A stretch of DNA of 64,000 nucleotides from an uncultured Lentisphaerota bacterium (GTDB lineage Bacteria > Verrucomicrobiota > Kiritimatiellia > RFP12 > UBA1067). Positions 26,916-48,300 of the stretch are shown here, one piece after another (the stretch's first letter is position 1; every line of letters begins with the position of its first letter). Under the pieces are notes generated by a model, which worked only from the letters and a program-made list of their open reading frames with translations, had not been told where the DNA came from and searched no databases. The stretch spans positions 3,236 through 67,235 of the forward strand of contig ONRL01000002.1 of assembly GCA_900320225.1 (NCBI GenBank), in the 5' to 3' direction. Both the position numbers and the translations under genes were made by a program.

Positions 26916-27413
26916 ATGGCAAACGAAAACGGTGCAATCGGCTGGGACGACGACGTCTCCGAATCTGAAGTCAAGGGCGGCGGCAAACGCGAAGATTTCG
27001 TGGTTCTGCCGGACGGCGAATATCCCTTCGCCGTCGCGAAGGTAGAGCGCGGAACGTTCGCGGGATCGAAGAAGGTCCCGCCCTGCAACAAGGTGGATGT
27101 AGGGGTTATCATCGACGGCGGCGACAAGGGTCGCTCCTACGTCACCAAGATGTTCCTCATGCACACAACGACGCTTGGGTTCATCTACGAGTTCCTGACC
27201 TCGCTGGGGCTGCACAAGAAAGGCGAGGGGGCGGGCCCTATCCCCTGGGGCAAGGTCCAGAACGGCATGGAGGGCCGCTGCAAGGTCTCCTCCAGGACGT
27301 ACACCACGCGCGACGGCGAGAGCCGCACGTCGAACGAGGTGAAGAAATGGCTCGCGCCGGCTGCTGCATCGGAACAGTCGGGATTGTCCGACGATCTGGA
27401 CGACCTGAAATGA
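26916..27413 (+). CDS. DUF669-family (phage SSB-like) protein (165 aa)
   Basis: RBS AAAAGGAGTAAGAAC precedes the ATG. It sits beside a Sak4-like ATPase and has an acidic C-terminal tail (SDDLDDLK). Confidence 0.55.
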   Translation: MANENGAIGWDDDVSESEVKGGGKREDFVVLPDGEYPFAVAKVERGTFAGSKKVPPCNKVDVGVIIDGGDKGRSYVTKMFLMHTTTLGFIYEFLTSLGLHKKGEGAGPIPWGKVQNGMEGRCKVSSRTYTTRDGESRTSNEVKKWLAPAAASEQSGLSDDLDDLK

Positions 27414-30070
27414 CACTGCGTCCGTATCAGAAAAAGGCCGTCGAGGCAGTGGAGGCGGAGTTCGGCAAACCGGACATCCGCTCCACCCTCATTGTCCTCG
27501 CGACGGGGTGCCACGCCATTGGCGAGAAAGTGCTTCTCGCCAATGGCGACTCGGCAAGCGTAGAGAACGTCCATGCCGGAGATTTTTTGCTCGGCATGGA
27601 CGGAACGCCGCGTCGCGTACTTGCCGTCCATCATGGCCATAAGCCATGCTATGAAATATCGCCAATCAAAGGCAAGCAGTTTGTCGTCACGGAAGACCAC
27701 ATGCTTTCGCTCGTGAAAACATCCATACGCCGAAACGGATTTCCGTCGCAGATTGGCGGCGATGTCGTTGACCTTACGGTAAAAGAATATATCGGCAAAT
27801 CAAAAACGTACAAGCATCAGCACAAGCTCTTTCGTGCGCCGATGATTGCATTCCCCGTGAAGGAGACACCCCTGCCGATACCCCCGTACATTGTCGGCGT
27901 CATGCTTGGGGACGGCGGACTAAAGTACAGCATAAACGTTACCACAGCAGAGCCGGAAGTGCTCGAGGCGTTGAGTTCGTATGCAAGATCGCTTGGCTAT
28001 ACGCTACGACCTGAACCTGCCGGTCTTGCAAATACGTGGATATTTCAGACTGGCGAAATCGGCTGCAACGGATCGCGTTTGCGCGGGATGCTCGCTCGTT
28101 TGGGGCTTTGGGGTTGCGGTAGCGGAGAAAAGCGCATACCGCGACAGTATCTGACGTCTTCAATCAAGGACAGGCTAGAGCTGCTTGCCGGTCTCATTGA
28201 CACAGACGGCTCAAAATCAAGCAATGGAAGTTGTGACTACATAACAAAGTCGCCGCGTCTGGCAGACGACATTTGTTTCGTGTGTAGATCGCTTGGTCTT
28301 GCGGCATACTCAAGCGTCTGCAAAAAATCAATTAAAAGCATTGGGTTCGTTGGTACGTATTACCGGATATCGGTTAGCGGAGACTTGTCTGTGATTCCAA
28401 CGCGAGTGCCTCGCCGCAAGTTTGACGTTAGGCGTCAGAAGAAATCAGTTTTGCGTACAGGTTTTTCAATACGGCCAGTCGGCGTGAAAGAATACTTCGG
28501 CTTTACAGTTGACGGCGACAACCGCTATTTGCTTGACGATTTCACCGTCACGCACAACTGCGGGAAGACCATCATCTTCTCGCACCTCGCCCAGCGCGAA
28601 GTGATGCGGGGCGGACGTGTCCTTATCCTCGCACACCGCGGCGAACTCCTCCAGCAGGCAATCGACAAGCTCTACAAGGCCACTGGGATAGAAGCCGGGC
28701 TTGAGAAGGCCGAGGAGACGAGCGAAGTCTCAAGCTTCGATCTGCCGTATACGGTGGTCGTCGGATCCGTCCAGTCGATGAAATCGCAGAGACGGCTTGA
28801 CCGATTCCGCAGCGACGAGTTTTCGCTTATCGTGATCGACGAGTGCCACCATGCGCTTACCAGCACTTATCGTGCTGTTATAGACCATTTTCCCCATGCG
28901 CGCCTCCTCGGCGTCACCGCCACACCGGACCGCGGCGACCTGCGCGACCTCTCCGAGGTGTTCCAGACGATTTCCTACGAGTATTCGATAGTGGACGCCA
29001 TCCGCGACGGCTACCTGTGCCCGATACAGGCGCAGACAGTGCCTCTAAGGATTGACCTCACCCAGGTCTCCAAGCAGGGCGGCGACTACCAGGCCTCATC
29101 CCTCGGCAATGCGCTCGACCCGTATCTGAGGCAGATTTGCCGCGAAATAAAGGAACGCTGCCATGACAGAAAGACGATTGTTTTTACTCCTCTTATCGCG
29201 ACCTCGCGAAAGATGTTGCAGATTTTTGTGGAAGAGGGCGTACAGGAAGTGCGCGAAGTTAACGGAGAAAGTACAGACCGAGCCGATATCCTTGACTGGT
29301 TCTCTCAGGCTCCGGCAGGCTGCGTACTTCTCAATTCTATGCTTCTCACGGAAGGATATGACGAGCCGTCTGTTGATTGCATTGTTGTTCTTCGGGCAAC
29401 GAAGGTTCGCGCCCTATTTGTCCAGATGGTTGGGCGTGGAACCCGCCTCTCGCCTTCCACCGGAAAGCAGAATCTGCTTCTTCTCGATTTTCTGTGGCTT
29501 ACATCGACGCACGACCTGTGCCGTCCTGCTTGTCTCCTGTCTGACGATCCAGAGGTGTGCGAGACGATAACAAAGAAGCAGGAAAGCAAGGACGGCCAGG
29601 CGGCGCTCGACCTGACGGCGGAAACTCTGGAATCGGCGGAATCCGAGACCGTGAAGAAACGGGAGGACGCGCTGGCGAAGAAGCTCCGCGAACAGGCACA
29701 CAAAAAGGGGAAGCTGATAGACCCGCTTGCCTATGCCTCGATGATCGGCTCCGAAGACCTCACGAAGGCTATTCCGGCATCACTCGACCAGTCGAACCGC
29801 CCCACGATGGAACAGCTGGACCGGCTTGAACGCCTCGGGTTTGCCTGCCCCGGCTCCGCATCCGCCGCCGATGCGTTATTGACAGCCTATCAACAGCGTG
29901 TTGACAGCGGGCTTTCCACCCCGCGCCAGATCAAGTTTCTGTCGTCGCGCGGCTTCCGCAACGTGGAGACGTGGCCCATGCAGGCCGCGCAGAAGCTCAT
30001 CAACCGCTTTGCGGCCTGCGGGTGGAACCGCATTCCCGCCGGAATCAATCCGGAGACCTACACGCCATGA
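27410..30070 (+). CDS. SF2 DEAH-box helicase (ResIII/Helicase_C type) interrupted by an intein (886 aa precursor)
   Basis: The P-loop is split as LATG | intein | CGKT. Other helicase motifs are VIDECHH (motif II), GVTATPDR (III) and TEGYDEPSVDCIVVLRATKVRALFVQMVGRGTR (V-VI). The start MTLRPYQ is ATGA-coupled. Confidence 0.8.
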   Translation: MTLRPYQKKAVEAVEAEFGKPDIRSTLIVLATGCHAIGEKVLLANGDSASVENVHAGDFLLGMDGTPRRVLAVHHGHKPCYEISPIKGKQFVVTEDHMLSLVKTSIRRNGFPSQIGGDVVDLTVKEYIGKSKTYKHQHKLFRAPMIAFPVKETPLPIPPYIVGVMLGDGGLKYSINVTTAEPEVLEALSSYARSLGYTLRPEPAGLANTWIFQTGEIGCNGSRLRGMLARLGLWGCGSGEKRIPRQYLTSSIKDRLELLAGLIDTDGSKSSNGSCDYITKSPRLADDICFVCRSLGLAAYSSVCKKSIKSIGFVGTYYRISVSGDLSVIPTRVPRRKFDVRRQKKSVLRTGFSIRPVGVKEYFGFTVDGDNRYLLDDFTVTHNCGKTIIFSHLAQREVMRGGRVLILAHRGELLQQAIDKLYKATGIEAGLEKAEETSEVSSFDLPYTVVVGSVQSMKSQRRLDRFRSDEFSLIVIDECHHALTSTYRAVIDHFPHARLLGVTATPDRGDLRDLSEVFQTISYEYSIVDAIRDGYLCPIQAQTVPLRIDLTQVSKQGGDYQASSLGNALDPYLRQICREIKERCHDRKTIVFTPLIATSRKMLQIFVEEGVQEVREVNGESTDRADILDWFSQAPAGCVLLNSMLLTEGYDEPSVDCIVVLRATKVRALFVQMVGRGTRLSPSTGKQNLLLLDFLWLTSTHDLCRPACLLSDDPEVCETITKKQESKDGQAALDLTAETLESAESETVKKREDALAKKLREQAHKKGKLIDPLAYASMIGSEDLTKAIPASLDQSNRPTMEQLDRLERLGFACPGSASAADALLTAYQQRVDSGLSTPRQIKFLSSRGFRNVETWPMQAAQKLINRFAACGWNRIPAGINPETYTP
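27509..28558 (+). mobile_element. Intein (350 aa) with a LAGLIDADG homing-endonuclease domain
   Basis: It begins with Cys (CHAIGEKVLLANG) and has block B VTEDHMLSL. The LAGLIDADG motifs are YIVGVMLGDGGL and LELLAGLIDTDGS. It ends ...DDFTVTHN, followed by a +1 Cys (CGKT). Its GC content is lower than that of the exteins. Confidence 0.85.
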
Positions 30071-33218: not shown

Positions 33219-33432
33219 AGGCATGGTGTCCGAAATGTGCGAGTACGCCGACGGGATCGCAAACCCGATGATAAGCGACCGCATCAAAGAATACGGCGAC
33301 CTCATCCTCGCCGCCGTTGAAGCAGAGCGAAAGGAATGGCAGAAGGAGCGGCTGACTTGGGAGCGGCGCGTGAAGATGGCCGCGAGTGTGGCTAAGGCAA
33401 AAGGCGGCAAAGTTGTGGAGGCGGGGAAATGA
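33208..33432 (+). CDS. Hypothetical protein (74 aa)
   Basis: RBS GGAGAAGGAGGACGGCA precedes the ATG at 33208. Confidence 0.45.
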   Translation: MTTEGMVSEMCEYADGIANPMISDRIKEYGDLILAAVEAERKEWQKERLTWERRVKMAASVAKAKGGKVVEAGK

Positions 33433-35096
33433 GGACCTTGAACACAGTAGACCTTTTCTGCGGCGCAGGCGGCGCATCCACAGGCATGGAGGACGCCTTG
33501 CACCGCATGAAACTGCACCACAAGGGGCTTGCAATAAATCATTGGGCCGTGGCCGTGGACACAATGCGCGCAAACCACCCCGACATTGACACCAAGCGCA
33601 TGAGCATTGAAGAAGCGGTGCCGGCCGACCTCGTTCCGGGCGGCGAGGTTGACTTGCTCTGGGCGTCCCCGTCCTGCACACACCATAGCCGCGCCAAAGG
33701 CGGCAAGCCGCGCAGCAACCAACTGCGCGCACAGCCGGAGCTTGTGCTGACATGGCTCGATCAGCTTTTTGTGCGCCGTATCATCATTGAGAACGTCCCC
33801 GAATTTGTGGATTGGGGGCCACTCTCGAAGGACGGCAAGCCGATTGAGAAATTAAAAGGGTCATGCTTTAGGGCTTGGGTCGCGGCTATCGAGGCGCGCA
33901 ATTACGCCGTTGAATGGCGCGTAGTGAATTGCGCCGACTACGGCGACGCAACGAGCCGCCGCCGATTTTTCCTTAAGGCCGTCCGGCGCGGGTGCGGAAG
34001 GATATGCTGGCCGGAGCCTACTCACGCCGAGAACCCGCAGCCGGATTTATTCCGCAAGCTGAAGCCGTGGCGCGGCGTCCGCGAGTGCCTTGACCTATCC
34101 GACACGGGCCGGAGTATTTTCAACCGCAAGAAGCCATTGGCAAAGAATACCCTCCGCCGAATTGCTGTCGGCTTGCGTAAGTTTTGCGGGCTTGATTTTC
34201 AGATGGATATGCTGGGTGCGGGCGAGAACGACGAAACGCGGGTATTGCCGACGACCGCGCCGTTGCGGACACAGCACACGGCGAACCGCACGGCCATCGT
34301 GCGCCAGTTTGTGGTGCGCATGAACAGGAACTGCGACGCCGAGAGCGTGGACGCGCCGCTTTCCACTACGACGACGAAGGAACACCACGCCTTGTGTTCG
34401 CCGCTCATTCTGGATCACTTCAAGAACGGCGAGGCACAGAGCGTGGACGCGCCTATTGGAACGCAGACGACGCACGACCGTTTCAGCATGGTTACGCCGT
34501 ATCTCATAACAGAGCAGACGAACAACGCGCCGCGAGGGATCGACAAGCCGCTCCGGACGCAGACGATGGTGTGCAAAGACTACCTCTGCACTCCGCTAAT
34601 TTTGGGGCAACAGGGTGGCGCGGCTTGCCGACCGATTGACGAGCCATGCCCGACGATTGCGACTGGCGGCGCGGTGCGGATGATTACGCCGCTTGTTTTG
34701 GGGCGCGACGCTTGCGCACAATGCCGCCCGGTGACGAAGCCCATGCCGACCCTTACTTGCGGCGGCGCGATGCGCGTAATCACGCCGCTGATCCTTGACA
34801 TGAGCCGACCAGGAGGAGCCGATGGCGGACACATCCGCACGGCGGACAAACCGATTCAGACCTTGACGACGTGTGACAACGTGCAGGGCGTTTTCCCCGT
34901 GTTGGAAGACGGGCGCGTGATCGACATCCGCATCCGTATGCTGAAGCCGTCCGAACTTGCGGCGGCGCACAGCTTCCCGAAGGACTACGTGCTTACGGGC
35001 AACCGTGGTGAACAGGTGAAGCAGATCGGGAACAGCGTACCAGTTATGACAGCCGCCGCCATGTGCGAGGCAGACTTTCGGGAGATGGCATCATGA
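33429..35096 (+). CDS. DNA (cytosine-5)-methyltransferase with a 7-fold tandem module array in the variable region (555 aa)
   Basis: Motif I DLFCGAGGAS, motif IV ASPSCTHHS, motif VI ENVPEF, motif VIII SRRRFF, motif X QIGNSVPV. Between motifs VIII and IX lie seven modules of about 32 aa (residues ~271-492), each with xP[LIMC]xT[QTLI][TA]. Confidence 0.85.
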   Translation: MRTLNTVDLFCGAGGASTGMEDALHRMKLHHKGLAINHWAVAVDTMRANHPDIDTKRMSIEEAVPADLVPGGEVDLLWASPSCTHHSRAKGGKPRSNQLRAQPELVLTWLDQLFVRRIIIENVPEFVDWGPLSKDGKPIEKLKGSCFRAWVAAIEARNYAVEWRVVNCADYGDATSRRRFFLKAVRRGCGRICWPEPTHAENPQPDLFRKLKPWRGVRECLDLSDTGRSIFNRKKPLAKNTLRRIAVGLRKFCGLDFQMDMLGAGENDETRVLPTTAPLRTQHTANRTAIVRQFVVRMNRNCDAESVDAPLSTTTTKEHHALCSPLILDHFKNGEAQSVDAPIGTQTTHDRFSMVTPYLITEQTNNAPRGIDKPLRTQTMVCKDYLCTPLILGQQGGAACRPIDEPCPTIATGGAVRMITPLVLGRDACAQCRPVTKPMPTLTCGGAMRVITPLILDMSRPGGADGGHIRTADKPIQTLTTCDNVQGVFPVLEDGRVIDIRIRMLKPSELAAAHSFPKDYVLTGNRGEQVKQIGNSVPVMTAAAMCEADFREMAS

Positions 35097-35254: not shown

Positions 35255-35531
35255 AAGCTACAACATGAACATTGACACGGGCGAAAAGACTTGGCTCACG
35301 CCGCGCTACATCATCGACGCACTCGGGCCGTTCGACCTCGACCCGTGTTGTCCGCCCAAAATGCCGTGGCGGACTGCGGCGGAGATGGTATGCCGCCCCG
35401 CCGACGGGCTCGCCGTGGACTGGCGCGGGACTTTGGCCCGTCTGCGCGAAAGCGGGCTTGTAGGGGCTTTGGTGCGGCTTAGAAGCGGCACAGACACAGA
35501 CAACAACAGTGAAACGGAGGACAACCAATGA
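35247..35531 (+). pseudogene. N-terminal fragment of a phage Dam-family N6-adenine MTase (motif IV and everything after it missing)
   Basis: WLTPRYIIDALGPFDLDPCCPP...ADGLAVDWRG matches the family's N-terminus (W.TP...f.lD...DGL..W.G). The sequence then diverges with no NPPY/DPPY motif in any frame. It ends at the RBS of the next gene. Confidence 0.5.
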
Positions 35532-36235
35532 GCAAAAAATACGAGTTCACAGGCGAGACGAAGGAGTGGTGTGGATGCACCCTGCACCGTATTCGCGCCG
35601 TCGTCTCGTTCGCCTATATCAAAGAGGGCGAGATGGGCGGATGGATCGAGACAGAAAGCAACCTATCCCATGACGGTAACGCGTGGGTCTCCGGCGACGC
35701 GAGTGTCTCCGGCAACGCGGAGGTCTCCGGCAACGCGAGGGTCTACGGCAACGCGTGGGTCTACGGCAACGCGGAGGTCTACGGCAACGCGTGGGTCTCC
35801 GGCGACGCGAGTGTCTCCGGCAACGCGGAGGTCTCCGGCAACGCGAGGGTCTCCGGCAACGTGAGAGTCTACGGCAACGCGGAGGTCTACGGCAACGCGG
35901 AGGTCTACGGCAACGCGTGGGTCTACGGCAACGCGAGGGTCTCCGGCAACGCGAGAGTCTCCGGCAACGCGAGAGTCTACGGCAACGCGGAGGTCTCCGG
36001 CGACGCGAGTGTCTCCGGCAACGCGGACTATGTTGTCTTTAAGAACTGCTGGTCGTCGATGCGGTGGTTTACCTATACGCGCTCCAACAAAAAGTGGAAA
36101 GTTGGGTGCTTCTACGGCACGGGCGAAGAGCTGATAAAGAAGGCGTACGCCGATTCCGAAAAGAGCGGCAAATGCTATGAGGCGATAGTCCGCGCGATGG
36201 AAACTATCGAGGCGGCGATAACCAAGGAGGACTAA
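35528..36235 (+). CDS. Hexapeptide-repeat (probable beta-helix) protein (235 aa)
   Basis: About 20 consecutive V-[SY]-G-[ND]-A-x hexads are flanked by unique N- and C-terminal domains (N: ...GGWIETESNLSHDGNAWV; C: ...YVVFKNCWSSMRWFTYTRSNKKWKVGCFYGTGEEL). Confidence 0.7.
   Translation: MSKKYEFTGETKEWCGCTLHRIRAVVSFAYIKEGEMGGWIETESNLSHDGNAWVSGDASVSGNAEVSGNARVYGNAWVYGNAEVYGNAWVSGDASVSGNAEVSGNARVSGNVRVYGNAEVYGNAEVYGNAWVYGNARVSGNARVSGNARVYGNAEVSGDASVSGNADYVVFKNCWSSMRWFTYTRSNKKWKVGCFYGTGEELIKKAYADSEKSGKCYEAIVRAMETIEAAITKED
35687..36028 (+). repeat. 19 tandem 18-bp repeats (consensus GTCTMCGGCAACGCGNRG), all in frame within the CDS
   Basis: Read directly from the sequence. The units differ at only 1-4 positions. 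A degenerate unit precedes the array at ~35669. Confidence 0.9.
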
Positions 36236-37644: not shown

Positions 37645-37958
37645 ATGACCCGACAATAGACATTTGCGACAACACCTACACGCGCAACACGACAACCGAC
37701 ATAGACAAGCGCCGAGAGTTCGGGCGGCTTGAGGGCCATACATCGAATACCGTAGGCCATCACTATTTGCGCTTAACGATGTCCGAGCCGCGAACACGCA
37801 CAGAATGGCGGTGGGGAGAGATTGCCAGGACAATAGGAGCGGACAAGGCAATCACTACCCGCGTCGGCATCCGCCTTCACGCAGGCCAGGTCAAGCAGTT
37901 GCGCGACTTCCTCAACAAGTGGCTGCAGTGCCACTATAAGGAAGGAGCCACAAAGTGA
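37641..37958 (+). CDS. Hypothetical protein (105 aa)
   Basis: GTG start with a GTGA overlap onto the upstream stop. Confidence 0.45.
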   Translation: MNDPTIDICDNTYTRNTTTDIDKRREFGRLEGHTSNTVGHHYLRLTMSEPRTRTEWRWGEIARTIGADKAITTRVGIRLHAGQVKQLRDFLNKWLQCHYKEGATK

Positions 37959-38848
37959 ACCCCGACATCGAATACGACTGGGCGGCGCACGACGCCCGCA
38001 TACGCGAGCACTACGCACACGCGAGGGAGAAGCACCCGTACTTCTGCGATATTATCGGAGACGACGGCTCGTCGTTTGACTTTGCGGGATGGCGACTTGG
38101 AGACTGCCGCAGGCGTCTGGTCCACGCAATAGAGGCAAACGTTGTTAGATGGGACGAGTTGCTGGATTGCGAGAAGTACGAAGCGATGGTGGAGATTCAG
38201 AACGGCCACGCCGCCGCCGCCGTGGAAGAGCTCTACGACTGCGTTGCGGTCCTCCTCCGCACAATCGATGTGCTGGAGGGCAGGCAGAAACTCGGGAAAC
38301 CAGGAAACGAAAAGGGTAGAGAAATGGAAAAGGGTAGAGAAATGAAACCAATACTTGATGCCTGCTGTGGCGGGCGAATGATGTACTTCGACAAGCACGA
38401 TCCCCGTGTGGTTGGGCAAGACATCCGCGTTGTTCCACGCCATAAGGTCGAAAGCAACGGCTCTTATTTTGAGGTATCCCCAGACGTTGTTGGCGACTTT
38501 CGCAAGATGGATTTCCCCGACAACTCCTTTTCGATGGTGATATTTGATCCACCGCACCTCAAGTGCGGCGAGACGTCGTTCATGTTCCACAAATACGGTT
38601 CGCTTGGCGCAACTTGGGAAGACGATCTCAAGAGGGGCTTCGCAGAGTGTTTTAGAGTGCTTAAGCCAAACGGCACACTCGTATTCAAGTGGTGTGACAG
38701 CTTTCGTTCTCTTGATATGGTCCTCGAATTGTCTCCGGAGAGGCCGGTAATCTCTCACAAGACCATTTCTCGCTCCGGCTCCAAGTACACTTATTTTGTC
38801 ATATTCATCAAATCGCCACAAGCCGAAACGAAAGGAGAAGCGAAATGA
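37955..38848 (+). CDS. All-alpha N-terminal domain fused in frame to a small class-I SAM-dependent DNA MTase (motif I ILDACCGG, motif IV VIFDPPH)
   Basis: GTG start after AAGGAAGGAGCCACAAA. The MTase half begins at MKPILDACCGGRMMYFD (internal ATGs at 38324 and 38342, each with its own RBS-like AAAGGG). No stop codon separates the two halves. Confidence 0.6.
   Translation: MNPDIEYDWAAHDARIREHYAHAREKHPYFCDIIGDDGSSFDFAGWRLGDCRRRLVHAIEANVVRWDELLDCEKYEAMVEIQNGHAAAAVEELYDCVAVLLRTIDVLEGRQKLGKPGNEKGREMEKGREMKPILDACCGGRMMYFDKHDPRVVGQDIRVVPRHKVESNGSYFEVSPDVVGDFRKMDFPDNSFSMVIFDPPHLKCGETSFMFHKYGSLGATWEDDLKRGFAECFRVLKPNGTLVFKWCDSFRSLDMVLELSPERPVISHKTISRSGSKYTYFVIFIKSPQAETKGEAK
38309..38344 (+). repeat. 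Perfect 18-bp tandem duplication GAAAAGGGTAGAGAAATG x2
   Basis: Copies at 38309-38326 and 38327-38344. The duplication encodes EKGREM-EKGREM and duplicates an RBS-plus-ATG unit at the domain junction. Confidence 0.9.
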
Positions 38849-39022: not shown

Positions 39023-39151
39023 ATGAGGATTTATATTTCTGGTTGTATGACGGACCATCCCGACATCAACTGCCCCGCGTTCAGCGCGGAGGAGTTCGTG
39101 CCGACGCCGCATCCGAAGCCGAGGTTCCAGCAGGAGGAGCTGTTCAAATGA
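39023..39151 (+). pseudogene. 42-codon remnant resembling the N-terminus of a DUF4406 (deoxyribosyltransferase-like) protein
   Basis: MRIYISGCMTDHPDINCPAFSA matches the family's opening (M.IYI.GPMtG.p..N.paF.a). The rest of the fold is absent. Confidence 0.35.
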
Positions 39152-40680
39152 GTACACTATTCCTTGGCGATTGCCTCGACGTGATGCACCATCTCGCCGA
39201 CAACTCAATCGACTCCATCGTTACCGACCCACCGTATGGCCTCGGTTTTATGGGCAAGGACTGGGATCACGGCGTCCCAGGTGTTGCCTTCTGGCAGGAG
39301 GCCCTGCGCGTCGCAAAGCCCGGGGCGCACCTACTCGCGTTCGGCGGGACGCGCACATACCACCGCCTCGCCTGCGCCATAGAGGACGCGGGGTGGGAGA
39401 TACGCGACTGTATCATGTGGGTATACGGAAGCGGCTTCCCGAAGTCTATGGACGTCGCAAAAGCCATCGACAAGATGCGTGGCAACAGCCAAAGATTCCA
39501 GCGCATGTATGCAGAGGCAGTTCGCGAATCAGGGCTAAATCACGCAGACATCGACCGTAGGCTCGGGATAAAATCATCGTCATGCTATTGGGTTAGGGAA
39601 GATGACCGCAAGAGTTTCCCGACGAAAGAAAACTGGGAAAATCTTAAGACCTTTCTTCCGCTCCCTGATAATGCCGATGAAATTTACGAAGAAGCCGCGC
39701 GAAAAGACAGGGAGGTTTCCGATGTGGGGGCAAACAGGGTGTTCCAACCTTCTCAAACGGTAATCAACCCCGGCACGCCCGCCACTCACGAAGCCGCCGC
39801 GTGGAACGGCTGGGGCACTTGCCTTAAGCCCGCACTAGAGCCCATCGTCGTCGCCCGCAAGCCCCTCGAAGGGACCGTCGCCGCCAACGTCCTCAAATAC
39901 GGCACGGGCACAATCAACATCGACGCCTGCAGGGTGCCGACGGAAGAGACTTGGACACATGGAGCAACACCAACAAAGCCGCGTGGAGAGTTCGACGGAA
40001 ACTGGAAGCGCATTGAACAGTCCTCCAACGGTAAGGGCCGCTTCCCCGCGAACCTCGTCCACGACGGCTCTCCCGAAGCCCTCGCCGCATTCCCCGATAG
40101 CAAAGGTCAGTGCGGAGCAATTAAAGGCACTGAGCCGAGCGAATCAACGCGCGGCATCTACGGCGAATTTTCGGGCAACCGCGTCCCGAACACGCCTCGA
40201 GGCGACACGGGCTCCGCATCGAAGAACACAACGTCATTACACCCCTTTCCGGCAATCCCGCCGGGAACTAGGAAACCAAACAACAAAGGAAAAACTACAA
40301 TGAGCAAGAAAAAGACAAACCCGCTCGACCATGTGTTCGGCGGCACCGAATACCTCAAGGCCAAGTTCGACGACATCGACGAGGCCGTAGTCTCGAAAAA
40401 GTCGAAACAGGCCAAGGACGTCAAGGCGCTCGTAAAGAGGCTTGCGACCGACAAGGACAGGATGTACGCCTATGCAGTCATCAAGACGGCTGGCAAGGCC
40501 GATGGCAAGCCTGTCTCTGGCTACGTTGTCCACGTCGCGATGGGGCTCAACGGCCCGGGAATGGGCTCCGACTACGCCGCCGCACTGAAACGCCTGCTCG
40601 ACACCGGCAAGTTCTGTCTGCTCGATGCGTGGATCGACGCCGTTGACGACCTCTGGGACTTCATCCTGTCCGTCAAGTAA
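39148..40680 (+). CDS. N6/N4 DNA MTase (beta-class, DPPY first) lacking its C-terminal AdoMet-binding part, read through in frame into an unrelated 126-aa module
   Basis: LGDCLDVMHHLADNSIDSIVTDPPYG, FGGTRTYHR, GSGFPKS, EPIVVARKP, GRFPANLVHD and GDTGSAS are all present. The expected ...RFFY...HPTxKP...DPFxGSGTT tail is missing. An internal ATG at 40300 with RBS AACAAAGGAAAAACTACA looks like an independent gene start. Confidence 0.55.
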   Translation: MSTLFLGDCLDVMHHLADNSIDSIVTDPPYGLGFMGKDWDHGVPGVAFWQEALRVAKPGAHLLAFGGTRTYHRLACAIEDAGWEIRDCIMWVYGSGFPKSMDVAKAIDKMRGNSQRFQRMYAEAVRESGLNHADIDRRLGIKSSSCYWVREDDRKSFPTKENWENLKTFLPLPDNADEIYEEAARKDREVSDVGANRVFQPSQTVINPGTPATHEAAAWNGWGTCLKPALEPIVVARKPLEGTVAANVLKYGTGTINIDACRVPTEETWTHGATPTKPRGEFDGNWKRIEQSSNGKGRFPANLVHDGSPEALAAFPDSKGQCGAIKGTEPSESTRGIYGEFSGNRVPNTPRGDTGSASKNTTSLHPFPAIPPGTRKPNNKGKTTMSKKKTNPLDHVFGGTEYLKAKFDDIDEAVVSKKSKQAKDVKALVKRLATDKDRMYAYAVIKTAGKADGKPVSGYVVHVAMGLNGPGMGSDYAAALKRLLDTGKFCLLDAWIDAVDDLWDFILSVK

Positions 40681-40704: not shown

Positions 40705-41610
40705 ATGCAAAAGTACATACGATGCCACATGGTCGAAGCCGAGCCGATGACGCGCGGAGACTATAACATCTCTCGCGGCGAGCCGTGCAATCTGAACGGA
40801 GCGCCAGAAGACGAGGGCTACCATGTCGTCCATCCCGACGGCTACGAGTCGTGGTGCCCCAAGGCGCAGTTCGAAGCCGCAGGCCGTCCAATCGACAGCA
40901 TGACGTTCGGCATGGCGATCGAAGCCATGAAGAAAGGCGCGAAGGTCGCCCGTCGCGGCTGGAACGGCAAGGGTATGTTCCTGTGGCTGAAACCAGCGAC
41001 AAGCATCAAGGCGGAGTGGTGCAAGGATGAAACGCTGAAAGGTCTCGTCGAAGCCAACGGCGGCGAAATCCTCGGCCTCGGCACCATCTGCATGTACACG
41101 CACGACGCCACGGGCCGCAAGGCAATTCTTACGGGTTGGCTCGCTTCGCAGTCCGATATGCTCTACGAAGATTGGGTTGTCGTGGAGAATGCCGCCGCCA
41201 ACACCATCCGCATCGAGGCCGGCGTCCGCTATCCAGAAGACGGCAACATCAACTGCATTGCCGACGACAACGACAACCCAAAGATGCCATTCCTTGTGCC
41301 AGATCCCGACAGCAAAGGCGAATGGCGCTGGAACCTCGACGTCAACATCGACACCGGCGAGGTCTCCGACTGGCCGAAGGGCGTTGTTGCCGATGTCCAC
41401 TACAAGGTCTGCGACTGCTGCCGCATTAAGTACGGCGACAAGAATTACGAGAACTACGTCCCGGACTTCCTGTCTATCAACGACGAAGGTTATGGGGACT
41501 ATGTGATACTCACCGTAGAAGACGGACGAATAAAGAACTGGGACGCCGCCAAATGCCGTGGCTTCATCAATGATTATCTCGCCATAACCGACACACAGAA
41601 GGAGGACTAA
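40705..41610 (+). CDS. Three-domain protein with a central DUF2829 (Tad2-like) domain (301 aa)
   Basis: The centre, MTFGMAIEAMKKGAKVARRGWNGKGMFLWL...WLASQSDMLYEDWVVVE, matches the DUF2829 pattern. The N-terminal ~60 aa include GYHVVHPDGYESWCPKAQFEAA. The C-terminal ~140 aa are unassigned. Confidence 0.65.
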   Translation: MQKYIRCHMVEAEPMTRGDYNISRGEPCNLNGAPEDEGYHVVHPDGYESWCPKAQFEAAGRPIDSMTFGMAIEAMKKGAKVARRGWNGKGMFLWLKPATSIKAEWCKDETLKGLVEANGGEILGLGTICMYTHDATGRKAILTGWLASQSDMLYEDWVVVENAAANTIRIEAGVRYPEDGNINCIADDNDNPKMPFLVPDPDSKGEWRWNLDVNIDTGEVSDWPKGVVADVHYKVCDCCRIKYGDKNYENYVPDFLSINDEGYGDYVILTVEDGRIKNWDAAKCRGFINDYLAITDTQKED

Positions 41611-41613
41611 GCC

Positions 41614-41763
41614 ATGAAGTACCCTCGCACACGACAGGGCATGGCGCGCCGCAAGGCCGAAGGCCTCAACCCGCGCTCGCAGTTCAACCCGCACAACGGC
41701 GAACCCCACACTAAGCGGTGGCTCGACGCGGAGCGCAAGCTGGGGCTGCGCAGGATGCGGTAG
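41614..41763 (+). CDS. Small basic protein (49 aa)
   Basis: Sequence begins MKYPRTRQGMARRKAEGLNPRSQFNPHNGEPHTKRWLDAERKLGLRRMR. Below the track's size cut-off. Confidence 0.35.
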   Translation: MKYPRTRQGMARRKAEGLNPRSQFNPHNGEPHTKRWLDAERKLGLRRMR

Positions 41764-41772
41764 GCCAACCAC

Positions 41773-41800
41773 GGGCAGCGGGCCGTCGCGCCCGCTGCCC
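41773..41800 (+). terminator. Strong GC hairpin (11-bp perfect stem, 6-nt loop), no U-tract
   Basis: GGGCAGCGGGC cgtcgc GCCCGCTGCCC. It lies between the 49-aa gene and lemA. Confidence 0.35.
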
Positions 41801-41824
41801 CAACAACCCTAAAGGAGCATGCAA

Positions 41825-42367
41825 ATGAAACAAGCACTAATAATACTCGCCGCATTTGTCGGCATAACACTAATCGCCGTCTGCGCCGTTTTCTCGTCGA
41901 AGAATGCGGCCGTCTCGCTGGAGGAAACCGTCAACGCGGCGAAGTCCGGCATAGACGTGCAGCTCACAAACCGCTTCAACAAGTTCCACGAACTCGCGGC
42001 GTGCGTCAAGAAATACGACGAACACGAGTACAAGACGCTCGTGGACGTCATCGAGCGCCGCGGTCGGAACATGAGCGGAGCGGAGGCAAAGCAGTGCATT
42101 GCGGCGTTCTCGCGCGTGGAGGAGCGCTACCCAGACCTCAAGTCGCAGGCCAACTACAAACAGCTGATGACCGAGGTCGCGCTCACGGAAAACCACCTGG
42201 CACAACACAAGAAGGCGTACAACGAATCCGTGCGTGACTACCGCTACCACTGCCGCAAGTTCCCCACATCCATCTTCCTCGGATGGACGGGCTACGAGGT
42301 GCAGACCTACGAGATGTACGCAGCGGACGAGGCCGTGAAGGACTCAAAACCCCTCGACCTGTTCTGA
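41825..42367 (+). CDS. lemA: LemA-family membrane protein (180 aa)
   Basis: N-terminal TM helix. GIDVQLTNRFNKFHELAACVKKYDEHEYKTLVDVIERR...RYPDLKSQANYKQLMTEVALTENHLAQHKKAYNESVRDYR matches the LemA pattern. RBS AAAGGAGC. Confidence 0.75.
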   Translation: MKQALIILAAFVGITLIAVCAVFSSKNAAVSLEETVNAAKSGIDVQLTNRFNKFHELAACVKKYDEHEYKTLVDVIERRGRNMSGAEAKQCIAAFSRVEERYPDLKSQANYKQLMTEVALTENHLAQHKKAYNESVRDYRYHCRKFPTSIFLGWTGYEVQTYEMYAADEAVKDSKPLDLF

Positions 42368-42382
42368 CGGGAGCCCTCCGCT

Positions 42383-43159
42383 ATGCCCATCTTTCCATAC
42401 AAAAGGAGATCCGGCCTCTCTTCGGCGGCGCACTCGTTCGAGGTTACGCCGAGGGAGGTCGTGTTCTCGGTTCTGATCGTCGGCGTGCTCTACGCCATCG
42501 GGTTTCTCGTCGCCGGTGCGATAGAGAAGCACGTCGCCGAGCGCTGCCTCAAGTACCGTCAGGCCGTCCAGATGAAGGACACCGGCGTTGAGCTGGCCTA
42601 TGCCTGCAAGACGGACGTCGGGGATGCATTCGTCGAAGGCGACTTCAGGACCGTAGACCCCGTTTCGTGGGACGGGCTCGCTGGTGTGCACCTCTGCATC
42701 CGCAGGGACAAGGAGCGGTACACGATGCACACGCGGACGGTCCACTACACGGACAGCAAGGGGCGCACGCGAACGCGAACGGAGCACTACTGGACATGGG
42801 ACGTGGTGGCGAGTGACAGCCGTAGAGCCACCAGGATTTCCTTCTGCGGGAATGTCTACGCCGTTGGCACGTTCGACTACGATGGGATTGGCTCTTCTCG
42901 CCACGTTCAGGGCACGGGGTTCCACACCCGGAACGTGTTCTACTACAAGCCCAAGGACTTCCGCGGCACCGTCTTCGCGGAACTGCGGCATGGAAAAATA
43001 CTCGGACACCCATATGTCTACGCGGGCATGAACCTGGCTAAGACGTATGAATTCTTCACCACGTCGCATGCGACAACGATCTTCTGGACGCTGTGGCTAG
43101 CGTTCACGGCGGCGTGCGTATGTGCGTTTTATGCACACGAGAACGGATGGCTTGAGTGA
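42383..43159 (+). CDS. Two-TM protein with a beta-rich central domain, LemA partner (258 aa)
   Basis: TM helices near residues 27-47 and 232-252, with His/Thr/Arg-rich beta-type sequence between them. The architecture resembles the GIDE/DUF3137-type genes that often follow lemA (tentative). Confidence 0.5.
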   Translation: MPIFPYKRRSGLSSAAHSFEVTPREVVFSVLIVGVLYAIGFLVAGAIEKHVAERCLKYRQAVQMKDTGVELAYACKTDVGDAFVEGDFRTVDPVSWDGLAGVHLCIRRDKERYTMHTRTVHYTDSKGRTRTRTEHYWTWDVVASDSRRATRISFCGNVYAVGTFDYDGIGSSRHVQGTGFHTRNVFYYKPKDFRGTVFAELRHGKILGHPYVYAGMNLAKTYEFFTTSHATTIFWTLWLAFTAACVCAFYAHENGWLE

Positions 43160-43205
43160 ACGTACAGGACAAAGACTAACATTCAGACAACAAAGGAGCA
43201 AACTG

Positions 43206-43754
43206 ATGAACGCACGCAAGATACTTATGGACTACGACAAGTGGCACTACCACAGACCCAAGCTTCCCACGGAATACCTGCGGCATCCCCGTTGGCTGTT
43301 CTGCCGCTGGGCGTGGGACCGCTACACCTGGCCGAGCTACGGCTCGTTCTTCTGCGAATGGCTGGAGAACATCTTCGTGTTTCTCACGCCGTGGTGCCGT
43401 CCGGCTCGCCGCCTGCTCAACGTGTTCGCCAACAGGAACGACACGAAGCTCCTCCACCAGACCCCCGCCGCCGTCGGAGTGCGGACGCGCGGCGAGTCGC
43501 AGGCGTACTACGACCTCCGTTGCGGGTTTTTCCTTGCGACGCTTGAGCGGACGCTCTACGTTGACCGCGAGACGGGCAAGGGCGCGAACATGTTCGGCGC
43601 GGCGATCTGCGGGCGAAGCGAAAAAGATTTTGACATACGGCACGAGCGCGTCCTCTCCGGCCCCTGCATGACTACCGCCCAGTGCGCCAGACTCCTTGAG
43701 CGGATCGTGGCGGCGACGCCGGACTGCGAATGGTGCGGGCTGGACGAAGAGTGA
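43206..43754 (+). CDS. Trp/Cys-rich hypothetical protein (182 aa)
   Basis: RBS CAAAGGAGCAAACTG precedes the ATG at 43206. It is the last gene of the plus-strand arm. Confidence 0.5.
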   Translation: MNARKILMDYDKWHYHRPKLPTEYLRHPRWLFCRWAWDRYTWPSYGSFFCEWLENIFVFLTPWCRPARRLLNVFANRNDTKLLHQTPAAVGVRTRGESQAYYDLRCGFFLATLERTLYVDRETGKGANMFGAAICGRSEKDFDIRHERVLSGPCMTTAQCARLLERIVAATPDCEWCGLDEE

Positions 43755-44092: not shown

Positions 44093-45325
44093 ATGGAGTT
44101 AGCCATGTTTCGTTCAAAACGCGAGGTCCTTTCATCCATCAGGGAACACAAGTTCACCAAGGGCGGGAAAGAGTATACCATATTCTCGGCCTTCTTGGGA
44201 AGGGATCCGATATCGAACAAAGGCAAGCGCGTCGCTCGCTCCGACAAGAACGAGCTCAGGCAGTACATCTCAGACTTTTACACCCGGCTCGACAAGGGTG
44301 GAGACAACGCCGTGCAGCTGGATCATGCGCAGTCCGCGGACGCCCACGCCGCATACGGGCTCATGGCGCAGTTCGGGCTGCAGATGACCCTTGCCGACGT
44401 GGTGCGCGCATACGCGACGCAGAAGGCGTACGGCGAACTTAAAGGCGACTGCAAGACGTCCGTGGGCGAAGCCTGGCACAGATACTCCGGCACTCTGTGG
44501 ACCAAGAGCGAGGCCTACCGCAAGTGCGTGACGAGCCGAATAGGCGCCTGGGTGCATTGCTTCGGCGAGAACCGGCTCCTGTCCGAAGTCTCAGCCTCGG
44601 AGCTGAAGGAATACCTCATGGACAAAGTCTTCCGACCGGAAAAGCCGGACACGGCGAAGACCTACAACAACGTCCTTGGCGACATCAAGACGTTCATCCA
44701 CTGGTGCTGCGCGAAGGAACAGGACCTTCTGGCGGTCGATCCTCTCGACGGCATGAAGAAGATGGAAATCGGGTACCGCCAGCCGGAATACATGAAGGCG
44801 GCGGATGTGGAGAAGTTGTTCCGCGTACTCGAGGCGCGCAAGGAGAAGCGGCCGGAAAACCTGGCCGACGCGATCCTGTCGTTCTTCTGCGGCGTCAGGC
44901 AGTGCGAGATAGCGCGCGTCCGAGAAGGCGAGAGCGCAGTGAAAATCAGCCTGGAGGACCACTTCATCCGCATAGTGAAGGTCAAGGGCTCGCTCCGCGG
45001 CATCCGCCCCCGCGCGTTCAAGATACCAGCGCAGGCCGAGGCATGGATGCGCTCGTTCGACTTCATGGCCGCAGTGCAGATCCCCAACACGGCGTTCCGC
45101 TACCACCTGAACATGGCCGCGAAGAAAGCCGGTATAAAGATGCCGAAGAACGCCGGGCGCCACACCTTCATAACGATGTACGAGGCGGCACACCACGACA
45201 CCAATGCGCTCTCCGGCATAGTCGGCAACACCGAAGGCGTCCGGTCGCGCTCCTACAACGGCGTCGAGCTGGAGCGCGAGGGACGGGCCTACTTCGAGAT
45301 TATGCCTACTTCTTCGGCCTCATGA
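44093..45325 (+). CDS. int: Tyrosine recombinase / phage integrase (410 aa)
   Basis: Catalytic-domain signatures are FFCGVRQCEI (Arg I), VKVKGS (Lys), NAGRHTFITMY (H/R box) and GVRSRSYNGV (Tyr). It adjoins the att-like site. An alternative start lies at 44105. Confidence 0.8.
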   Translation: MELAMFRSKREVLSSIREHKFTKGGKEYTIFSAFLGRDPISNKGKRVARSDKNELRQYISDFYTRLDKGGDNAVQLDHAQSADAHAAYGLMAQFGLQMTLADVVRAYATQKAYGELKGDCKTSVGEAWHRYSGTLWTKSEAYRKCVTSRIGAWVHCFGENRLLSEVSASELKEYLMDKVFRPEKPDTAKTYNNVLGDIKTFIHWCCAKEQDLLAVDPLDGMKKMEIGYRQPEYMKAADVEKLFRVLEARKEKRPENLADAILSFFCGVRQCEIARVREGESAVKISLEDHFIRIVKVKGSLRGIRPRAFKIPAQAEAWMRSFDFMAAVQIPNTAFRYHLNMAAKKAGIKMPKNAGRHTFITMYEAAHHDTNALSGIVGNTEGVRSRSYNGVELEREGRAYFEIMPTSSAS

Positions 45326-48300
45326 GGTCTATGACCTGCTGCTGGTAGCGAAGGCGCGTCTTCTCGTACTTCTTCTTGGTGGCCTCCGAGGGGTTGCGCT
45401 TCCTCACCCAGCGGCCGCCTTCGCGCTCTTCGCCGTCCTCCCAGTGGCGCAGCGTCCTGATGTCGTTCAGGAGCTTCCTGATCTTCTCGTCGCGGCGCGA
45501 GCCGGCCTTGATCGTGCCATCGGCGCGGTCCACCTTGTAGCGGCGCTCCGCCTCGTAGAAGTTGTGCGCATTGTCCGGTACGTCGCGCACATAGTCGCGC
45601 CAGAAGGGGATATGCGAATTGTCGAGGTCCTTGCCCTCCTTCAGGTCCGTCACGAAGTCCGACACAGTCGTTATGTCGCGGCCCAGGTTCTTCAACGCCG
45701 AGTCCACTACGAACTTGTAGTTCTCGGGGGAGTAGTCAAACCACCCACGGCGCCTCTCGTTGCCGCCCGTGAGCTTGTTCATCCCGCGCGCCATGGACTT
45801 CCAGACGTCGCCGGTCTGCTTGCGCCCGTTCTCGGAGTACGGTTTCGTCTCTGAGAACATCTGCTTGCGGATCGGACGCCCGGCGTAGTCCTCGTTGCCC
45901 TTCAGCTGATAGAACGGCACCAGAAGCGTCGGAAGGAGCGACTGTACAGGCGTATCGCTGTTGAAGTCTCCAGTGCCGGTGAAGTGCATCCCGGAGTCAA
46001 GCGCCTCCTTGCCGATATGCTTTGCCGCATCCGCCCCGGAAATGTCACCGAGCGCCGCCCGCGCCGCGAGGTTGCCGGCGTACTTCAACACCGAGAACGG
46101 CCCAGCGTGGAACGGCACGCGGATGAACTTGTCCCCCATGCGGAAGTAGAGGGAGTTCGCCCGCTGGAACTCCGTCATGGTCTCGCCCGACGGCTCGCCG
46201 CTCTTCCTGGCCTTCTTGTCGTCGTCTGCGTTGAAGAAGTGCTCGGCCATCGCCTCCATGACGCCGTAGGTGAAAAGCGCCATAGCCAACTGGCGGCCAT
46301 GCTTGCCCGTGGCAAGGGACGCCGTCTGGCGGATCGCGCCGCCTATGACCGAGCCGGAGAACATCCATGCCGAGTTCATCCAGCGCTGGTTGCCGTACTT
46401 GTTGAAGTCGGTCGAGTATTCGCGCGAACGCATCGCCGCCTCGCCGTCCGAGGCGCCGCCGTCAATGTAGTCCTTGAACACAGCAAGGCGCGTCGCAAGC
46501 TCGCCCTGCTTGTTGATCTCGGAGATGCCGCGCCCGACGAACCGCAGTACGTCCATGACGCCGTGTTTGCCCGAGGCCACCTTGCCGAGGTCGTTCTTCA
46601 GCTCCGTGTAGCCCTCGTTGCCCATGCCGCCAATCGACGCGCCCGACTCGACGTAGCGGCGCATGACGTCGGCATAAGGCCCCTCGAACTTGCCGGTCTT
46701 GATGTACTTGCGGATCGTCCCCGCCATACGCACAGCGTTCGCGACGTTCCTCACGGCGGACACGCCGCCGCGGATGACACCCTTGTCGGCCATCGTATTC
46801 AGGGACGCCTCGAGCATGTCGGCGGCGAAGTTGCGCCCAAGGAACGCCGGCGAAAGCTCCGTCGCCGTGGAAGCGTAGCCGCGGGTAAAAGCCGCCACGG
46901 GTTTCCACATATTCTGGACCCCGCGTCCAATGACGGCCTCCGCAACGCGCTCGCCCTGTTTGCCGTTCAGCTCGATCATGTAGAGGTTGCCGCCCTCCTT
47001 GAATGCCACGAGGTTCGGACGCCCCGAGCCGCCCTTCACGGTCTGCTCGTGGTAGTTGGGATCCGGGAAGTCCTCGATCTGCTTGTGCGTGAAGCTCCAT
47101 GCCTTGCCGCGGCGGACACCCTTGCGTACCTTGCCTACGCCCGGCGTGGAGCGCACGAAGTCCGCCAGGACGCGACGGGCCTCGTTGATGTTCGAGCCAT
47201 ACATCGCGTCCTGGTACTCCTTGAACATGAACTCCACGGGGTTGTCTGGCAGCGTGTAGCGCCCGTTCGCCTCCTTGAAGTCGCTTCTGCGCCACTGCCG
47301 CGTGGAGCGGTTGTATTCGCCGCCCTCGTCGGAGAGGTCGTCGCGCATCGGGACGTGGAACGGCTCCTCCTTGCGCCACTGGTCCGCCGTCTCGCGGGCG
47401 ACGCGCCCGGATTCGACGCGGCGCTCCATGCCCTCGTCCTGCATCTTCCAGAGGAAATTAGCCATCTCCTCGATCTTGGCAACCTTGTCGGCACCGAGAT
47501 GCGAACGGAGGTCGGAGAGTATCTTCGCCGCGTCGGCGTCCGAAAGGCCCGCGCCGTCAAGCGTGCCCGAGCGCTCCATCACCTTGCGATTGCGGTCTTT
47601 CGCATTCGTGGCGATCATGTACATGCCGACGTCGTCAACGGTCGCGCCGGACTTGCGGAGCATGTCCTCGAAGGGGCGCTTCCATATCTTCTCGTAGCGC
47701 TGGCGCGCCGCCTCGTTGTGGCCGTGCAGAAGACGCATGGCGTTGTACGGCGAGTTCTCGGCGTACAGGTCCTTCTTGTCGCGTCTGCCGGTGGCGATTT
47801 CCATCTTCTTGATGGGGTCGTAGCGGTCGGCGAGTTCCGTTTTCGCCTTCTCCGCGATGGTCGTCTTGCGGTCCGCCGCGGGGGCGACGGGCTCCGGCTC
47901 CTTCGGCTCGCCGTCGGGGCGGATGCGCGCGCGGTTCGCGTCGTCGATCTGCGTCATGTCCTCGGCGACGTTGTGGCGGTCGGCGGTCTCCCAGGGGGCC
48001 GTCTTGCCGCGCTCCTCGGCGGACATCCTGGCGCGCGTGGCGGCCTGGCGGGCCTCCCACTCGCCGTGTTCCTGCGTGTAGCGCCCGAACGACTTGCCGT
48101 CGGTGTTCGTGCCGCCGGCCATGCCGGACGCCGCCTGTATGCGGTGCTGGAGCTCGTGGTTCAGCGTCTCGGCGGTCGTGCCGCGCTCGTAGAGGTGTAT
48201 CTTCCCCTTCGTCGCGTAGCCGAGCGTGCCGTCCTTCGGCTGCTCCGCCTTGCGGTCAACCTCGATCGTCTCCTTGCCGAGCCTCGGGTAGGCGGCGAGG

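Follow-up and report, generated by a model that had tools for sequence, protein, structure and literature searches.

The 64,000-nucleotide stretch of contig ONRL01000002.1 analysed in this study (the window; uncultured Lentisphaerota bacterium) carries a gene for a C5-cytosine DNA methyltransferase (MTase) of the phrog_116 family, in which a single catalytic domain is interrupted by seven consecutive units of about 32 residues. The explanation favoured here, to which we assign a probability of about 0.5, is that the protein would be an orphan anti-restriction methylase of a prophage, with cassettes serving as alternative target readers for a single active site. A multi-reader enzyme is the best supported reading because cassettes are gained and lost in the family, because the loops of each cassette type are distinctive and conserved, and because relatives that were assayed protect several discrete sites. 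A first-pass annotation of the same DNA had proposed an unusually highly multispecific, or modularly evolving, self-protection MTase akin to the SPR, phi3T and rho11s enzymes of Bacillus phages. The enzyme class, the location of the array and its modularity hold in that interpretation, and tested relatives that protect many unrelated sites speak for it, whereas the word "unusually", the kinship with SPR and the unit boundaries were not supported.

The methyltransferase and its tandem array

The gene is a complete open reading frame (ORF) and, in the ORF listing, the sole long sensible reading frame over its stretch (coordinates are collected in Table 1). The translated protein matched Pfam PF00145 (E=2.9e-23; its 83 bits exceed the cutoff of 22) and, over aa 1-548, the phrog_116 profile annotated as "DNA methyltransferase" (E=1.1e-67), and the NCBIfam model TIGR00675 (dcm) gave 75 bits, which lies under its cutoff of 100.65. 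The C5-MTase motif set (I, IV, VI, VIII and X) was present in canonical order, and every motif quoted in the first-pass annotation was located in the translation. In addition, the PDB matches of aa 1-270 were the catalytic cores of DNMT1, M.HaeIII and DNMT2, and the ten-motif framework is common to the window protein and to M.HhaI, M.HaeIII and Dcm-type enzymes. As judged from these motifs and profiles, the protein is securely placed among the C5-cytosine DNA MTases and in its family, and the PF00145 match together with the full motif set agrees with the enzyme class proposed at first.

The target-recognition domains (TRDs) of C5-MTases sit between motifs VIII and IX. In this interval of the window protein, seven T-x-[TA] cores stand in register, and the corresponding P[LIMC].T cores begin at aa 278, 310, 342, 374, 406, 438 and 475, with core-to-core spacings of 32, 32, 32, 32, 32 and 37 residues. 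The seven units of about 32 residues read between these motifs in the first pass were thus recovered, and its eight-residue core strings were all correct. The BLOSUM62 autocorrelation of aa 270-505 was highest at lag 32 (+170), with lags 64 and 96 next, whereas the best lag of 1000 shuffled controls averaged -82 +/- 14 and never exceeded -22. Moreover, BLASTP of aa 271-401 against aa 402-505 returned four alignments, each displaced from the next by about 32 residues (E 1e-7 to 3e-4). In a leave-one-out test with hidden Markov models (HMMs), units 2-6 reached 23-32 bits, whereas the highest values among 2000 shuffled 32-mers were 7-9 bits; units 1 and 7 came out just above this background, so that the array consists of five strong units with a marginal one on either side. 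The periodicity of 32 residues far exceeds what chance would produce.

A window of about 60% G+C with many spurious overlapping ORFs, together with an array that has no tandem repeat at the DNA level, would suit the view that the repeats arise merely by chance or from the composition of an ORF rich in G+C. This view is refuted by the autocorrelation, by the leave-one-out scores and by the occurrence of the same array in thousands of homologues from unrelated hosts, and its probability is negligible. The units are 12-41% identical to one another in amino acids and 34-54% in nucleotides, and the array copies are ancient. A recent duplication or a phase-variable DNA repeat was also considered and was rejected, as Tandem Repeats Finder detected no DNA-level tandem repeat over the array.

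Unit number and cassette exchange in the phrog_116 family

Units in homologues were counted with an HMM that was built from the seven window units and iterated. A word-indexed protein search returned 5051 relatives, and the best 120 of these, which were studied more closely (56-90% identity, 464-661 aa), carried 5-10 units each, with protein length following unit number. In an exhaustive search of representatives at 50% identity, 7960 matched at E<=1e-3 and 2091 at E<=1e-30; the best 150 of the 7960 carried 2-13 units with a mode of 7, and their units were spaced by 31-43 residues with a mode of 32. Seven units are therefore typical and not exceptional, and unusual multispecificity can no longer be claimed on their number: the comparison of repeat number among homologues, which the first-pass annotation had suggested as a check, places the window count at the family mode. 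End-to-end homology and at least two units spaced by about 31-43 residues, which characterize phrog_116/ARM81-type enzymes, were both found in the window protein, and it belongs, as an ordinary member, to a phage MTase family that is very large and has been annotated before, and some of whose enzymes have been cloned.

The family extends over many phages. With tblastn, 355 phage records matched, 294 of which covered at least 80% of the query. They include records of Gordonia, Mycobacterium, Pseudomonas, Arthrobacter, Vibrio, Microcystis, Bradyrhizobium and Burkholderia phages, Myxococcus Mx4 and Halobacterium phiH, and several members that were inspected directly had 3-7 units apiece. In a record labelled Bacillus phage phi105 (KY197768.1), a 462-aa frame at positions 601-1890 encodes an unannotated family member with three units; the record annotates only CwlH.

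Gain and loss at the level of the cassette is shown in the family. For this comparison, homologue units were labelled by the nearest window unit and unit types were defined by average linkage; single-linkage clustering at 50% identity placed nearly everything in one cluster and was hence not used. The homologues displayed the unit combinations 1-2-3-4-6-7, 1-2-4-5-6-7, 1-x-3-4-5-7 and 1-2-3-4-6-6-7, as well as longer ones with novel units. Unit 3 was missing from P0020 and P0023, and unit 6 was missing from P0022 and P0038 and duplicated in P0028 and P0032. These many combinations of presence and absence, in homologues that are 56-90% identical and carry 5-10 units, support the modular evolution that had been proposed.

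Explicit alignment located the deletion joins in the turn past the T.TT strand. In P0020, ...TTHDRFSI of unit 3 is fused to CTPLILGQQ... of unit 4, and the fusion in P0008 joins PIDEPCPTIATVGAV, contributed by the N-half of unit 5, to RVITPLILDMSRP, contributed by the C-half of unit 6. Adjusted mutual information (AMI) tied the C-half of unit n to the N-half of unit n+1 at 0.84 (49 distinct pairs) and more weakly to its own N-half (AMI 0.70, 67 distinct pairs). The breakpoints in the turn and the AMI values indicate that the heritable cassette is composed of a hydrophobic strand, a long polar loop, the D.P..T.TT strand and a 5-residue turn, so that the exchanged cassette is offset by half a unit from the boundaries drawn in the first pass.

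The unit types are marked by their turns (HDRFS, VRKDY, GGAVR, CDNVQ, KEHHA and ANRTA), and loop positions varied by 2-3 bits between types and by about 0.5-0.7 bit within a type, compared with 0.46 bit in the catalytic core. Furthermore, N-half types recurred at 69-88% identity (75-88% for units 2, 3 and 5) at other ordinal positions in backbones that are about 40-64% identical. For example, the N-half of unit 2 is 75% identical to the position-9 unit of the distant representative P0175, and units at positions 4, 8 and 10 of distant representatives share 75% identity with the N-half of unit 3. In total, about 228 N-half types (50% clustering) were counted in the 150 representatives.

These data allow a broader proposal, which is put forward tentatively and at somewhat less than even odds: phrog_116 may be a second and far larger lineage of multispecific C5-MTases, the 32-residue cassette may be its minimal swappable reader, and the window protein may address about 5-7 motifs. 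Phages of bacteria and archaea would then shuffle hundreds of cassette types, up to 13 in one enzyme, and would track the restriction repertoires of their hosts. The literature search returned no paper on tandem TRD arrays in the phrog_116 family, which is not proof that none exists; the family-wide architecture of 2-13 cassettes and its shuffling in half-unit phase do not appear in the literature searched.

Target recognition and the competing readings

ARM81mr_p29 of Aeromonas phage phiARM81mr and ARM81ld_p31 of phiARM81ld belong to the same family as the window protein, with which they share 31-32% identity, and both aligned with it end to end in BLASTP (aa 6-555, E=1e-70, for ARM81mr_p29; E=5e-67 for ARM81ld_p31). 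Common to these relatives and the window protein are the motif IV variant SP.C.H[HF]S, the tandem D.P..T.T units and a position in a phage replication module without a cognate endonuclease. The ARM81 enzymes have five units each, in contrast to seven in the window protein, and their unit types differ, as does the host lineage, which for the window protein is that of Kiritimatiellia-like metagenome-assembled genomes (MAGs). The ARM81-type relatives have been cloned and assayed, whereas the window protein is known from sequence alone.

In PMC5537653, ARM81mr_p29 and ARM81ld_p31 are described as "m5C MTases with relaxed specificity" (m5C, 5-methylcytosine) and are given as 34% identical to Phi2LM21_p23 of Sinorhizobium. 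The same source reports that Phi2LM21_p23 is inactive in E. coli and shares 44% identity with JCM7686_0772 and JCM7686_2655, two enzymes from prophages of Paracoccus aminophilus, and it names Rhizobium phage RR1-A as encoding a homologue of those enzymes of about 700 aa. In our comparison, the RR1-A enzyme (RHXG_00060) aligned partially with the window protein (window aa 34-488, 30% identity, E=4e-52), and it has at least 8 units and an extra insert of about 50 aa 5' of motif IX. The annotated 697-aa "DNA cytosine methyltransferase" of RR1-A (41579-43672) begins with ...AINHNP, past motif I, which makes it probable that the start codon was placed too far downstream in the annotation.

Both Paracoccus enzymes were active when cloned, were credited with "relaxed substrate specificity" and protected DNA partially against 16 enzymes (PMC3925955). 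Protection was reported against AluI (AGCT), BglI, Bme1390I, BsuRI (GGCC), CaiI, EcoO109I, EcoRII (CCWGG), Hin6I (GCGC), HpaII/MspI (CCGG), HpyF10VI, NciI, PauI, PvuII, TaiI (ACGT) and XhoI (PMC3925955). The DNA remained unprotected against Bsh1236I (CGCG), Bsp68I, Bsp143I, BspLI, Eco130I, FspBI, Hin1II, HinfI, MbiI, MluI, NcoI and PamDI, so that the unprotected sites include CGCG, ACGCGT, TCGCGA, CCATGG and GATC (PMC3925955). This pattern is discrete and is not readily explained by a single GC or CC rule.

The pattern bears directly on a rival account, in which the array would form a single composite DNA-binding domain of relaxed specificity: stacked hairpins would direct methylation of a C in a short degenerate context, and the number of units would alter affinity or processivity and add no discrete targets. 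The wording "relaxed substrate specificity" used by the authors of the assays, the partial protection and the summary of the target as a C in CC all agree with such a domain, as do the shortness of the units (32 aa), their largely colinear order among close homologues and the established fact that open repeat folds commonly tolerate changes in copy number. The single sites fit it less well, as GCGC was protected but CGCG and ACGCGT were not, and ACGT was protected but TCGCGA and ACGCGT were not. Likewise, CCGG and CCNGG were protected but CCWWGG and CCATGG were not, which one dinucleotide rule fits poorly, with the caveat, for the whole pattern, that some of the assay enzymes differ in which m5C position blocks them. 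Moreover, type-specific loop residues that are conserved within the type are unexpected for a generic binder, and the same cassette types occur at other positions in distant backbones. On balance, a composite domain is considered less likely than a multi-reader enzyme, but it is the most serious of the rivals.

A second rival concerns the last unit. Ordinary C5-MTases have one Thr-containing TRD strand just 5' of motif IX, and in M.HhaI two recognition loops border the strand that bears T250-L251. Unit 7 occupies this canonical site directly 5' of motif IX, and residues 257-308 of M.HhaI aligned weakly with aa 487-539 (phmmer, E=0.37), so that the T.TT strand of unit 7 might lie opposite the T250-L251 region. 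Monospecific C5-MTases lead from a single Thr strand through a turn and a hydrophobic strand into motif IX, and unit 7 holds that place in this weak alignment; they have one TRD element, whereas the window protein has seven and the family 2-13.

The window enzyme might accordingly be monospecific, with only unit 7 reading DNA and units 1-6 serving as a structural spacer or being duplicates that have decayed. Among the enzymes of Bacillus phages, some TRDs are inactive "pseudo" TRDs, and units 1 and 7 behave unlike units 2-6. Unit 7 stands where ordinary C5-MTases, such as M_MAGs_10, have their single D.PsPTItT element (PMC11954522). Against decay, the repeat is best conserved in its internal copies, units 2-6, units are conserved within their type about as strongly as the catalytic core, arrays of 2-13 units are kept across thousands of phage proteins from bacteria and archaea, and the tested relatives protect many sites. 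A monospecific enzyme is consequently regarded as improbable.

The Bacillus-phage enzymes M.SPRI, M.Phi3TI, M.Rho11sI and M.H2I offer a parallel in architecture. Like the window protein, they carry repeated cores (sPT[LI]T) between motifs VIII and IX, and they are phage-borne orphans with one catalytic core whose module number varies among relatives. Bacillus temperate phages are known to array multiple TRDs in one polypeptide against many restriction-modification systems (PMC12707154). The two groups differ in that the modules of the Bacillus-phage enzymes are fewer and spaced by about 27-50 residues, whereas the window units follow a regular 32, and motif IV reads PCQ.FS in the former and PSCTHHS in the latter. 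The specificities of the individual Bacillus-phage TRDs were mapped by experiment, and the window units were read from their amino-acid sequence. No significant similarity was found by BLASTP between the window protein and the SPR, rho11s, H2 and phi3T enzymes (E 0.4-3.5), and on their TRDs the unit HMM gave -2 to -4 bits, with only the P-T-[LI]-T core aligned. Homology of the units to the classic TRDs is thus not demonstrable, and the kinship that had been suggested reduces to a likeness of architecture. At most, the window protein would work like the multispecific Bacillus-phage enzymes, and it is not a member of their family.

The structure of the array was predicted with AlphaFold2 in two runs, the first with an 85-sequence alignment and the second with a cleaner alignment confined to 7-unit proteins, to which 21 representatives of 35-42% identity were added. 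The predicted local distance difference test score (pLDDT) was mostly 85-97 in the catalytic part and 83-95 in the motif IX-X region; it was below 50 for aa 293-502 in run 1 and 25-40 over the array in run 2. A search of the unit profile against PDB sequences gave chance matches only (UL34 with E=0.095, and enoyl-CoA hydratase), and the whole-protein profile matched catalytic cores only, with no solved structure spanning such an array.

Several of these observations weigh against alternative readers. An array pLDDT of 25-40 in the two AlphaFold2 runs offers no structural support for independent modules, and the conservation of loops within a type is partly circular because the types came from sequence clustering. 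The TRDs of Bacillus-phage enzymes, as Trautner et al. are said to have reported in 1996, measure 38-54 residues and are thus longer than the 32-residue units. Weak scores and fixed positions set units 1 and 7 apart, the type of unit 1 being seen only at array position 1 in homologues, and these two units may be framework rather than readers. The specificity of the relatives has been called "relaxed", with partial protection only (PMC5537653, PMC3925955), and PMC5537653 sums it up as modifying a C within the motif CC. The membership of the Paracoccus enzymes in the family is by report, through the identities in PMC5537653 and RR1-A as a proxy.

In the favoured multi-reader explanation, one catalytic domain (motifs I-VIII and IX-X) would be split by seven hairpin-like cassettes, each of which would repeat the element that forms the conserved Thr strand in the TRDs of ordinary C5-MTases. 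Each cassette would add loops of its own, namely the long polar loop 5' of D.P..T.TT and the 5-residue turn past the strand; target choice would depend on loop, Thr strand and turn, and in M.HhaI such elements lie on both sides of the TL strand. The cassettes would take turns at the single active site, several short sequences would be methylated, and the phage DNA would be shielded from several host restriction systems at once. Unequal recombination between cassettes would add, remove and recombine readers and retune the repertoire. We infer that every cassette reads a target of its own, independently of the others, and that the window gene is active. The gene would be part of a temperate phage's module for replication and counter-defence, and the host of that phage is probably a gut member of the Kiritimatiellia.

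Phage m5C methylation is poorly mapped because SMRT (single-molecule real-time) sequencing detects m5C badly. If the cassettes are independent readers, one common gene family would explain the broad resistance of many temperate phages to Type II restriction, and the cassette content read from sequence would predict the restriction systems that a phage evades. In that case, the minimal target reader of a C5-MTase would also shrink to about 32 residues, and a large natural library of parts for programmable multi-target m5C writers would be at hand. If the array is one domain of relaxed specificity, it would still represent a fold that awaits solution, in a phage enzyme of great abundance. The value of these results lies in the family-level pattern, the window locus itself being an ordinary member.

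Genomic setting of the gene

The MTase gene lies in a prophage. Its upstream neighbours encode an SMC-like ATPase, an AAA_24 protein, a helicase of the ResIII/SNF2 type, an AAA_25 primase-helicase-like protein and RusA. The downstream genes include those for two more DNA MTases, one assigned to phrog_954 with a DPPH motif and the other to N6_N4_Mtase and phrog_67, along with a Tad2-like (anti-Thoeris) protein, a virion protein and an integrase-like protein, which marks the probable end of the prophage. No restriction endonuclease partner was identified among the scanned neighbouring ORFs, and the C5-MTase is therefore considered an orphan within a replication and counter-defence module. As judged from gene content, the C5-MTase, the two further MTases and the Tad2-like protein form a predicted prophage counter-defence cluster. 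The closest genomic relatives (63-83% identity) come from gut and rumen Kiritimatiellia MAGs (human, Hadza and roe deer omasum), which suggests a Kiritimatiellia host for the prophage; one close genomic relative lies in a bin labelled Faecalibacterium sp. CAG:74.

Table 1. Positions of the C5-MTase, its motifs and units, and neighbouring features in the window
Feature	Residues (aa)	Window position (nt)	Strand	Remarks
Complete C5-cytosine DNA methyltransferase ORF		33429..35096	+	555 aa + stop
Catalytic large-domain part, motifs I-VIII	1-270	33429..34238	+	
Motif I FCGAGG	10-15	33456-33473	+	
Motif IV SPSCTHHS	80-87 (SPSC 80-83)	33666-33689	+	
Motif VI ENV	121-123	33789-33797	+	
Motif VIII RRRFF	177-181	33957-33971	+	
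Unit 1 PTTAPLRTQHTANRTAIVRQFVVRMNRNCDAE	274-305	34248..34343	+	marginal; leave-one-out 8.3 bits (shuffled max 7.1)
Unit 2 SVDAPLSTTTTKEHHALCSPLILDHFKNGEAQ	306-337	34344..34439	+	leave-one-out 23.7 bits
Unit 3 SVDAPIGTQTTHDRFSMVTPYLITEQTNNAPR	338-369	34440..34535	+	leave-one-out 26.8 bits
Unit 4 GIDKPLRTQTMVCKDYLCTPLILGQQGGAACR	370-401	34536..34631	+	leave-one-out 23.4 bits
Unit 5 PIDEPCPTIATGGAVRMITPLVLGRDACAQCR	402-433	34632..34727	+	leave-one-out 24.8 bits
Unit 6 PVTKPMPTLTCGGAMRVITPLILDMSRPGGAD + 5-residue longer linker	434-470	34728..34838	+	leave-one-out 32.2 bits
Unit 7 TADKPIQTLTTCDNVQGVFPVLEDGRVIDIRI	471-502	34839..34934	+	leave-one-out 10.9 bits
Motif IX RMLKPSE		34935-34955	+	
Motif IX to motif X + C-terminus		34935..35093	+	aligns to 8yf3_A, DNMT1
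Motif X QIGNSVP	532-538	35022-35042	+	
Helicase ORF with intein		27347-30067	+	907 aa
Heptad-repeat protein		35528-36232	+	235 aa; directly downstream of the MTase
Further DNA methyltransferase		37955-38845	+	
Further DNA methyltransferase		39043-40677	+	
Tad2-like (anti-Thoeris) protein		40705-41607	+	after the two further MTases
Integrase-like protein		44093-45322	+	phrog_1, phrog_216
Giant ORF		45306-57734	-	4142 aa

Three other features of the neighbourhood were observed. The helicase ORF contains an intein, with a Hint domain at aa 55-122 (Hom_end-associated) and a LAGLIDADG domain at aa 264-344, both N-terminal to the helicase motifs. The protein encoded directly downstream of the MTase is made up, over almost its whole length, of heptad repeats of the GNA[EWR]V[SY]G type and matches the YdcK beta-solenoid and bactofilin Pfam families as well as phrog_7964 (unknown function). 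Finally, the giant ORF on the reverse strand abuts the integrase gene and lies in a stretch whose G+C is raised, at about 65%.

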